The position numbers were made by a program, and so were the translations under genes. From positions 32,428,001-32,492,000 of the forward strand of contig NW_024704742.1 in assembly GCF_018977255.1 (NCBI RefSeq): DNA of 64,000 nt, given 5' to 3'. Numbering within the stretch: the stretch's first letter is position 1; every line of letters starts with the position of its first letter. Source of the DNA: Callorhinchus milii. Taxonomy: Eukaryota. The notes beneath the pieces were generated by a model. The model saw only the letters and a list, made by a program, of their open reading frames with translations. It was not told the origin of the DNA and made no database searches. This document shows positions 24,201 to 27,200 of the stretch, in pieces.

Positions 24201-27200
24201 AGTGATGTGGTGCCTAGTTTTATTGCAGAAGGGAGTTTTTGGAGTCACTTATTGTTAAGCAGGAGGTATGACAACCAAGCCTGAGTCTGACCTAATTTGA
24301 AATCCATGAATGCACATCTTCAAGCAGGAATCTCAACTCTAAGCACATTGACTATTTGTGTAAATATTAGTTTAAAAATAATGGCAATATTCATAATCAC
24401 GACAATATCTACAACATTTTTGTTAGCTACCATCAATGGCAATTATAAAATCAGGGTTTATATCACCCAGGAGAATAAGGCCTAGGTGAGAATGTAACTG
24501 AAATCATAAATGAACACCAGCATCTTTTGTGCTCCACTATCCTTGTAGACTTGAGAATGAAGCCTGTGTTATAGCACAGTCCTTGCTAATGTGAGTGTCC
24601 TTAACATAACAAATAAAACATGTCAGGAGCTATGGTTCAGAGGTCTTGTAACAGATACAGCGTTTTTAATTGAAAGAATGGCAAGTCATCGAGGTGAAGT
24701 GAATTTATATTGTGATGTGTTGCAGCAACAATGTTATAATTTTCCCCTCTCCTGTTTTCGGTAGCACATCCGGGTTGGCTGGGAATTGCTCCTTACTACG
24801 ATTGCTCGAACAATGAATGAGATTGAGACCCAGATTCTGACCAGAGATGCTAAAGGAATCACCCAGGAACAGATGAATGAGTTCCGAGCTTCATTTAACC
24901 ATTTTGACAGGGTACAGTGCTCCGTTTATCCATTTCAGTGTCTTATTAATGGATGCCAAATGTTGATTTACAATAAGATGTTGTGGTGGATCTGTGTGAC
25001 ATGGAGCTCTTGACAGCTGCACAATTGACTGGTCTTGTAGCTTGGTGTAGTATTGAGCTCCAGATAACTGCACCATAAAATCGTATAGCACAGGCTTTCA
25101 TTTCTGATGTATTGCACACTATGTTCTTGGTTACTGTCAGGCACCAGGCTTTTTCTCTGTTAGGGAGTGATGAAAAGTCAGAGATATTCGCCTAGAATTA
25201 GGCTGTAGTGCATTTTGTGAGATATAGTTTGCAAGAAGTGATTAGGGGTGCAGATTGACTGCCCACTTAATCAAATAGGACATGGTACAAGGAGATTAAA
25301 ACATGGAGCAAACTTACCATAAACCACCTAAAATATAATTGTAGAAGGTTATTCAGTTTCAAATTGTATCAAGAGCAAAATATGCATTTTGGGGGGATTT
25401 TTATTTTGTAAAGATTAAATGGGACACGTAAACAGGCCATTGGAGTATTCTGGGAATAGCATTTCACATAAAACATTTTTTAAAGGTATGACTTTGTAAT
25501 TTGGTCTAAAGTTTATTGACCAGAATGTGAGGAACCATCTAAGTCTGTTTCGGCGAGAACATGTAAGATTATTTATGAGTGATTTTGTAGTTTTCAAGGA
25601 GTCTACTGTTTGTTTGATTCAGTTGCACTAAGTATAAGCACGCTTAACTAAACTCACTGAAATTGAACGCTGACCATTAAATTATTGCACGACCAACCAG
25701 TATGTTCTGATTCTTTTCTTCTAGTTTCATTAAATCCTCTAACCCCAGGTTCTTTTCGCTGCTGAATGTCGGATGCTATTCCTGCTGCAACATGGCACAT
25801 CAGATGTTCGTCATTCACTGGTTTACTATTCCTCAGTGTATTTGCCCCTTTGGCCCATTTGATCTCAGTACCAAATTTCTACCCCACCATCCTCCCATTA
25901 CAGCAACAAGACGTTTCTGAAATGAGTCAGTTTCTTGTTCTTTACCACTTTTCTTGCTAAGCAGTTACAGCTGTTAATCGCCCTTCATGTAAAGAAAGAT
26001 TTCCTTCTTACCAAATAAATGCATTAATGGAGCACTTGTCTCGCAAATGAGAGACTTGGGTTCGATTCCCAGCAGGGCAAAATGTTGGGCAAGTTTCCTT
26101 ACTCCACGTGCCTCTGTTTACCTAGCAGTAAGAAGTAACTTGGTTGTTAGTGGATTGGAGGAACACTTTCCCGGGGGTAATAATTTTTTTTAAAAAAAAT
26201 TTGGTTACTTCAATCCACGACTGTTTGCAATTGGCTGTTGCATTTCGCCCACAAAATATACAGTCAATTCACTTTACAGTATATACGGTGAAGCGCTTTG
26301 AGACATCTCGAAGATGTGCTAAGATGCTATGTCAAATGTAAGGATTATTATTATTAAACACTTAACTTTTAGCATGGAACTTACCATTCATTAATTGAGT
26401 ACTTTGTAATTTTTCTCATCTTTCTTTAGTTCGGGATAGATGCTGTATAAGTGTATGTGCCCATTGCATGCTGTAACTAATGTGTGTGTGATACTAGGAT
26501 GAATCTGGCATTCTGCGACCAGAGGAATTCAAAGCTTGCCTCATCAGCCTTGGTCATGTTGGAAATGATCAGCAGGTACTAACCAAACTGTGATGTTTAT
26601 TTTCTACATACAAGTAAAAAGGTGCTAAACTTGTTTCTTTTTTTTCCTTTCTCAACCTCTGTGTTTTCCTGTCTTTGTTGATATTCTTTTTGGTCTTTGC
26701 TTCGCATTTGTGCCCTGGTTGTTCCTTTCCTGTTTGATTTGTTTGTGTGTCAGTGACTCCCTTCCTGCTTCTCACCTGCCCTGAATTTGGAATTGCTGTA
26801 TCCTCGGACTCTGAATGACCTTTTGACTCTTTCCGATATGCTGCCTCTTCACCCATTGCACCATGGGCTCCCGATCTGTCTGCTGGAAATCCCTCAATCC
26901 TCCACCTGTTCCTTTACTTGCTGATCTACTCAATAGAAGAAAAATAAGGCAATGGAGCCAGATGACCTCCGAGCTTGTCTCATCTCCATGGGCTTTGATC
27001 TGGTATGATAGATGCAAGTTTAATAATTCTGATGTTACAACTGTCAGGATTGGAGGTCTAATTTTGCAACACAAATTCATTGTCACTTCTAGTTACAAAC
27101 AAAAGTTATTTATTTTGTGTTAATTCACAAAACAGTTACTTGCAAAATCCAAATACTGACAATATGCAGTGAAAAATATCCAGAAAGCTGGTGGTTTGGT

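Follow-up and report, generated by a model that had tools for sequence, protein, structure and literature searches.

The alpha-actinin-2 gene (ACTN2) of the chimaera Callorhinchus milii carries an alternative, non-muscle-type EF-hand exon, exon 19a, which is spliced into mRNA. The stretch analysed (64,000 nt; assembly GCF_018977255.1, contig NW_024704742.1, positions 32,428,001 to 32,492,000, forward strand), hereafter the window, contains most of ACTN2 and then the methionine synthase gene (MTR), and we are highly confident both of this assignment and that the exons at window positions 26498–26575 and 26937–27002 are ACTN2's own 19a/19b pair. The searches demonstrated that 19a is conserved in ACTN2 across the sampled jawed vertebrates other than mammals. 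The exon is real and is not new: it was already annotated for C. milii and for many non-mammalian vertebrates.

All exons described here lie on the plus strand. Exon 18 (24765–24911) is 100% identical to Callorhinchus ACTN2 records, provides positions 1 and 2 of the EF-hand 1 (EF1) loop (..FNHFD-R) and is followed by GT immediately after ..FNHFDR. Exon 19a, the NM-type exon (26498–26575), has 78 nt encoding 26 aa, runs from GAT to CAG and is bounded by ag and gt. An intron of 361 nt (26576–26936) separates it from exon 19b, the SM or muscle-type exon (26937–27002; 66 nt, 22 aa), which runs from AAG to CTG between ag and gt. Exon 20 (28595–28753) covers the EF2 region, and the last coding exon (29678–29836), located by tblastn with its start fixed by a contig joint, encodes EF3-4, ends in ..YGESDL and contains the stop codon. 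Exons 18, 19a, 19b and 20 are all in phase 0 and free of stops. In tblastn the ACTN2 isoforms P0005 and P0007 aligned exon by exon to window positions 75–29833, and both 19a and 19b were matched at 100% identity by two named isoforms. The 78-nt exon alone matched the calmodulin-like domain of human alpha-actinin-1 (PDB 2n8y; 29.5 bits, E 1.9e-6); it is the homologue of ACTN1 19a and occupies, in phase 0, the place between exon 18 and 19b. Taken with the use of its donor in an RNA-derived contig, these matches to named isoforms and to 2n8y place the signal of the 78-nt exon above chance. A preliminary description of this DNA had proposed 78-nt and 66-nt phase-0 exons after exon 18; their coordinates are as it claimed, and the NM/SM pair that it named is the same as the 19a/19b pair.

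Splicing of exon 19a was observed in contigs of two sequencing runs, X1 and X6. In each run one contig had 19a spliced straight to exon 20, leaving out 19b, through a GT..AG joint (placed at 26573>28593; moving the cut by +2 gives 26575>28595). This is one of the junctions by which the preliminary description proposed to check inclusion of the exon, and its presence answers the refuting case named there, an exon that is never included. The joint between exons 20 and 21 (28753>29678) was present in both X1 and X6, and a GT..AG joint between exons 17 and 18 in X6. None of these three joints was found in the DNA-like runs X2 and X4 despite their even intron cover, and since these runs span the introns without joints the joined form is not genomic DNA. 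The 19a–20 contigs in two runs and their absence from the DNA-like runs therefore demonstrate that 19a is spliced into mRNA, where the RNA status of X1 and X6 is a guess ('RNA?') and both come from one study and carry no tissue label. Joints 24911>26498, 26575>26937 and 27002>28595 were absent among the 15 joints listed (there were 86 further joints). A search for runs with the 78-nt exon, in which just three words were sampled, listed no run on record as RNA. The X6 contig depths (54.9 for the contig of exons 19a, 20 and 21 and 58 for that of exons 17 and 18) are unfit for ranking isoforms, and the 19b bin and the greater part of 19a are covered too sparsely in X6 for this to count as a finding. 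Record 25 of X6 appears to extend 14 letters into 19a and to end at a variant at window position 26512. That position shows a T>A variant in the DNA-like run X4 (depth 4.5 of 8.8), which falls on the third base of an Ile codon in 19a (ATT>ATA) and is synonymous.

Exactly the exons of the window are found in the public C. milii isoform records, which are automatic models and carry no functional statement. The UniProt isoforms comprise 19b-only (P0004, P0007), 19a-only (P0006, P0009) and 19a+19b (P0005) forms, and the NCBI model P0002 reads through past the 19a donor to a stop codon. Public records for the same gene are UniProt A0A4W3IPE6, A0A4W3IYV0 and A0A4W3IUV0 and NCBI XP_007892088.1. Read-through past the 19a donor into the intron also occurs in retrieved models of mammalian ACTN1 (human, orangutan, sheep and opossum; P0145–P0159, P0166, P0168). 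Among 287 proteins, namely the matches listed by the exon 18 search and two region-restricted searches, at least 43 contain a 26-aa ACTN2-type 19a (36 found by pattern and 7 birds), and these represent at least 29 genera. In these listed matches, ACTN2 with 19a came from chimaera, sharks, a ray, bichir, reedfish, sturgeon, gar, bowfin, coelacanth, four turtles and many birds. No such ACTN2 from a mammal, teleost, amphibian or squamate was among the matches listed, which does not establish a true absence. The chimaera exon is 88–92% identical to those of bichir, gar, sturgeon and bowfin, for which the rest of the protein is 84–85% identical, and 69–81% identical to those of sharks, turtles and birds. 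Two Tenrec ACTN2 models (P0117, P0120; X3/X4) carry five extra residues, EGGRR, after 19b; they were considered as a possible 19a exon and rejected, the extension resembling an alternative donor instead. In excerpts of a review, mammalian ACTN2 and ACTN3 are stated to encode 19b only (PMC4550062), and human ACTN2 retains only the exon-8 pair (Abascal et al., PMC4494069).

The preliminary description fared well as an observation and in part as an interpretation. Its statement that mammalian ACTN2 and ACTN3 use only the Ca2+-insensitive type agrees with the excerpted review, and the double-inclusion isoform that it considered possible is annotated as P0005. Its view of 19a as a trait of this lineage does not stand, as the 26-aa exon is annotated in ACTN2 from sharks to birds. 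We found no description of a 19a exon in ACTN2 in the literature searched, which does not prove that no such description has been published. As far as a partial account goes, Parr et al. (Eur J Biochem 210:801) reportedly described in 1992 a chick skeletal-muscle actinin gene, that is a non-mammalian muscle gene, with two isoforms differing in the EF-hand, as in the chimaera. The bird ACTN2 records retrieved have the same 26-aa type of 19a as the chimaera, and the chick gene is probably ACTN2 and its variant exon 19a. Because of the public isoform records and this chick precedent, the finding is counted as already known.

Two further homologous exon pairs lie upstream in the same gene on the plus strand. 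The exon 8a/8b pair in the actin-binding domain (8235–8321 and 8816–8902) is identical at 66 of 87 nt. UniProt models pair 8a with 19a and 8b with 19b; P0002, the read-through model from NCBI, departs from this in having 8b with 19a, and so do P0003 and P0008, in which no clean choice is made at exon 19. A third pair is located in the CH2 domain (6a and 6b; 5242–5320 and 6344–6422, each 79 nt). Its members are AG/GT-bounded and of the same phase, with 54 of 79 nt identical and codon differences of which 14 are synonymous and 6 non-synonymous. One UniProt isoform (P0004) includes the second copy, which was seen in no other ACTN2 among the 287 proteins listed. The two CH2 exons may represent a mutually exclusive pair not described before.

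Joined to exon 18, exon 19a completes an EF1 loop with D1, D3, S5, G6, R9 and E12, the reading of the preliminary description including its R9; ligand residues thus stand at positions 1, 3, 5 and 12 with Gly at position 6, as in a canonical EF-hand. The 19b loop, D-R-K-K-N-K, has no ligands. At EF1 the 19a isoform passed the Pfam EF-hand_1 cutoff by a margin of only 1.5 bits (26.9 bits against 25.4), and the 19b isoform gave no EF-hand_1 match above cutoff there. Seven taxa have Arg at loop position 9 (chimaera, bichir, gar, sturgeon, bowfin, coelacanth and manta); in the others the residue is Gln or His. The PROSITE EF-hand pattern is not known to allow Arg at this position. Position 12 is Ala in turtles and Asp in whale shark and zebra shark, and position 6 is Asp in seven birds. 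Given this variation among relatives at key loop positions, 19a has been kept even where it is doubtful that the site is canonical. In ACTN1, as given in excerpts of the structural and binding studies, the Ca2+ ligands are D759, D761, S763, the carbonyl of T765, a water held by G767, and E770 (PMC4895382), and Ca2+ is bound only by 19a-containing forms, with a Kd of about 50 uM, and not by the 19b form (PMC4435478). By analogy with ACTN1, the chimaera 19a form might bind Ca2+ and loosen actin cross-linking; because loop position 9 is Arg, we put the chances of this at about even. The label 'Ca2+-sensing' for the chimaera exon would likewise be a prediction from loop residues.

In our best explanation, 19a and 19b are the ACTN2 version of a homologous alternative pair inherited by every vertebrate actinin gene from the gene that preceded their duplication. 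Joining of exon 18 to 19a produces an EF1 loop with side-chain ligands matching those of Ca2+-binding ACTN1, and joining to 19b the ligand-less muscle loop. It is possible, although we consider it rather doubtful, that the ACTN2 of ancestral jawed vertebrates was switchable between a Ca2+-regulated non-muscle isoform (8a with 19a) and a muscle isoform (8b with 19b), with 6a/6b in CH2 as a possible third switch in the chimaera; that in the chimaera the 19a form truly binds Ca2+ and is a major transcript of ACTN2 in one or more of the tissues sampled; and that mammals lost this function to ACTN1/4. An alternative to which we give somewhat less than an even chance is that 19a is used and conserved while EF1 has no physiological Ca2+-sensing role, the exon altering instead the shape of the calmodulin-like domain or its partners (neck, PIP2 or titin-type contacts) in ACTN2 isoforms of the non-muscle type. 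The residues found at position 9 are consistent with such a role, as are the retention of 19a in turtles despite Ala at position 12 and the Asp at position 6 in birds, and ACTN1 itself is a weak binder, with a Kd of 50–100 uM in the excerpts available (PMC4895382, PMC4435478). Against it, most lineages retain the side-chain ligands 1, 3, 5 and 12, the 19a isoform passes the Pfam cutoff, and position 9 of ACTN1 works through water according to the excerpted structural study (PMC4895382).

That the 78-nt exon is a functionless decaying relic or splicing noise is very unlikely. The excerpted review reports 19a to be missing from mammalian ACTN2 (PMC4550062) and the model P0002 reads past the 19a donor to a stop codon, and both speak for a relic. 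However, the frame is open and the AG/GT bounds are intact, the identity to the exons of the non-teleost ray-finned fishes bichir, gar, sturgeon and bowfin exceeds that of the rest of the protein, the exon occurs in at least 29 genera, spliced contigs contain a proper 19a–20 joint, and the sole variant seen inside 19a is synonymous.

Exon 18 retrieved eight C. milii records named actinin alpha 2, all 100% identical, and the best 120 matches listed were nearly all named ACTN2. Pfam matches on P0004 and P0006 (CH, Spectrin, EF-hand and EFhand_Ca_insen) gave the actinin architecture of two CH domains, four spectrin repeats and EF-hands. A tree was calculated for 30 proteins (22 ACTN2, 1 ACTN3 from wombat, 7 ACTN1 and 0 ACTN4) with the exon-19 segment cut out. 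The window protein clustered with the eight elasmobranch (shark and ray) ACTN2 rows with an SH-aLRT of 99, and 22 of 22 ACTN2 rows separated from the one ACTN3 (98) and the seven ACTN1 (99) rows, in a 'quick' search in which the sole ACTN3 row, wombat, the only ACTN3 retrieved, was long-branched. A single clade of the chondrichthyan rows and ACTN3 was rejected by the AU test (delta lnL 19.4, p 0.0029), the group having been chosen post hoc with the tree already seen. Scores against PDB actin-binding domains (ACTN2 512.7, ACTN3 506.9, ACTN4 438 and ACTN1 428 bits) set the sarcomeric pair apart from ACTN1/4 and barely separated ACTN2 from ACTN3. Downstream of ACTN2 on the same strand, the exons of MTR extend from 38579 to 58978 (38.6–59 kb), as recognised from open reading frames and the Pfam domains S-methyl_trans (homocysteine S-methyltransferase), Pterin_bind and B12-binding_2. 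At human 1q43, ACTN2, MTR and RYR2 lie together in the excerpted text of PMC10303204, and a synteny table for LGALS8 lists ryr2, mtr, actn2 and heatr1 in cartilaginous and lobe-finned fishes (PMC10343441). From the names, the tree, the AU test and the MTR synteny, the gene is thus well supported as the ACTN2 orthologue, and the phylogeny called for in the preliminary description bears out the identity that it gave. There is only the slightest chance that the gene is ACTN3 or an ACTN1/4-type paralogue, in which an NM exon would therefore be expected: the closeness of the ACTN2 and ACTN3 scores and the MEPDD shared by chimaera 19b and wombat ACTN3 point that way, against the tree, the AU test, the MTR synteny and the Ensembl/UniProt and NCBI names.

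As ACTN2, the chimaera gene resembles ACTN1 and ACTN4 in its 19a/19b (NM/SM) arrangement: the position after exon 18, the phase and the homology of the pair are alike, 19a supplies ligands at 1, 3, 5 and 12 and 19b none, and a double-inclusion form is annotated. It differs from both in that the host gene is a sarcomeric paralogue. Exon 19a of ACTN1 has 27 aa (81 nt), whereas the ACTN2-type exon has 26 aa (78 nt), with one residue fewer before GND; among the matches listed the two lengths were kept without exception, with 26 aa in 43 of 43 ACTN2-type copies and 27 aa in 113 of 113 of the ACTN1 type. Position 9 is Gly in ACTN1 and Arg, Gln or His in ACTN2-type 19a.

The surroundings of the two exons can also be compared with ACTN1. 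The acceptor region of 19a (26465–26497, plus strand) contains TGCATG (26465–26470), a TG repeat (26481–26490) and a weak pyrimidine tract. Pyrimidines make up 67% of the intron that separates 19a from 19b, and no AG occurs in the 181 nt ahead of 19b; the AG-free zones of four neighbouring introns measure 13–62 nt. In ACTN1 the SM exon has a distant branch point and pyrimidine tracts to which PTB binds, and GCAUG near the NM exon is the element through which Fox proteins act. The resemblance of the chimaera layout to ACTN1 splice control may serve as a lead, and the long pyrimidine tract ahead of 19b together with the UGCAUG and UG elements ahead of 19a would determine which exon is chosen. 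At the 19a donor, window positions 26576–26583 read GTACTAAC, in which a perfect branch-point-like TACTAAC stands directly at the 5' splice site. High-copy interspersed repeats flank the alternative exons at about 25850–26500 and 27150–27800, intronic stretches where, in each of the four runs, the summed contig word depths ranged from 1e3 to 7e5.

Other repeats were observed elsewhere in the window. Between ACTN2 and MTR lie two GC-rich minisatellites whose period is 28 nt (31810–32295, 17 copies; 32893–36283, about 126 copies), and they explain both the GC content of 0.59 and the strong skew measured there. Open reading frame fragments encoding the same peptide recur on both strands (for example 31271–31501, 39441–39758, 52411–52638 and 62837–63172), which suggests a dispersed short repeat family.

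As a discovery the result adds little, the exon having been annotated for C. milii already and a chick precedent existing in the account available. Its meaning lies in the retention of 19a in ACTN2 of most of the other jawed-vertebrate groups sampled. The description of ACTN2 as the Ca2+-insensitive muscle actinin is true of mammals and is a shorthand in need of correction elsewhere. If the 19a form binds Ca2+, the division between muscle and non-muscle actinins would have come in part from the loss of an exon in mammals and not from gene duplication.
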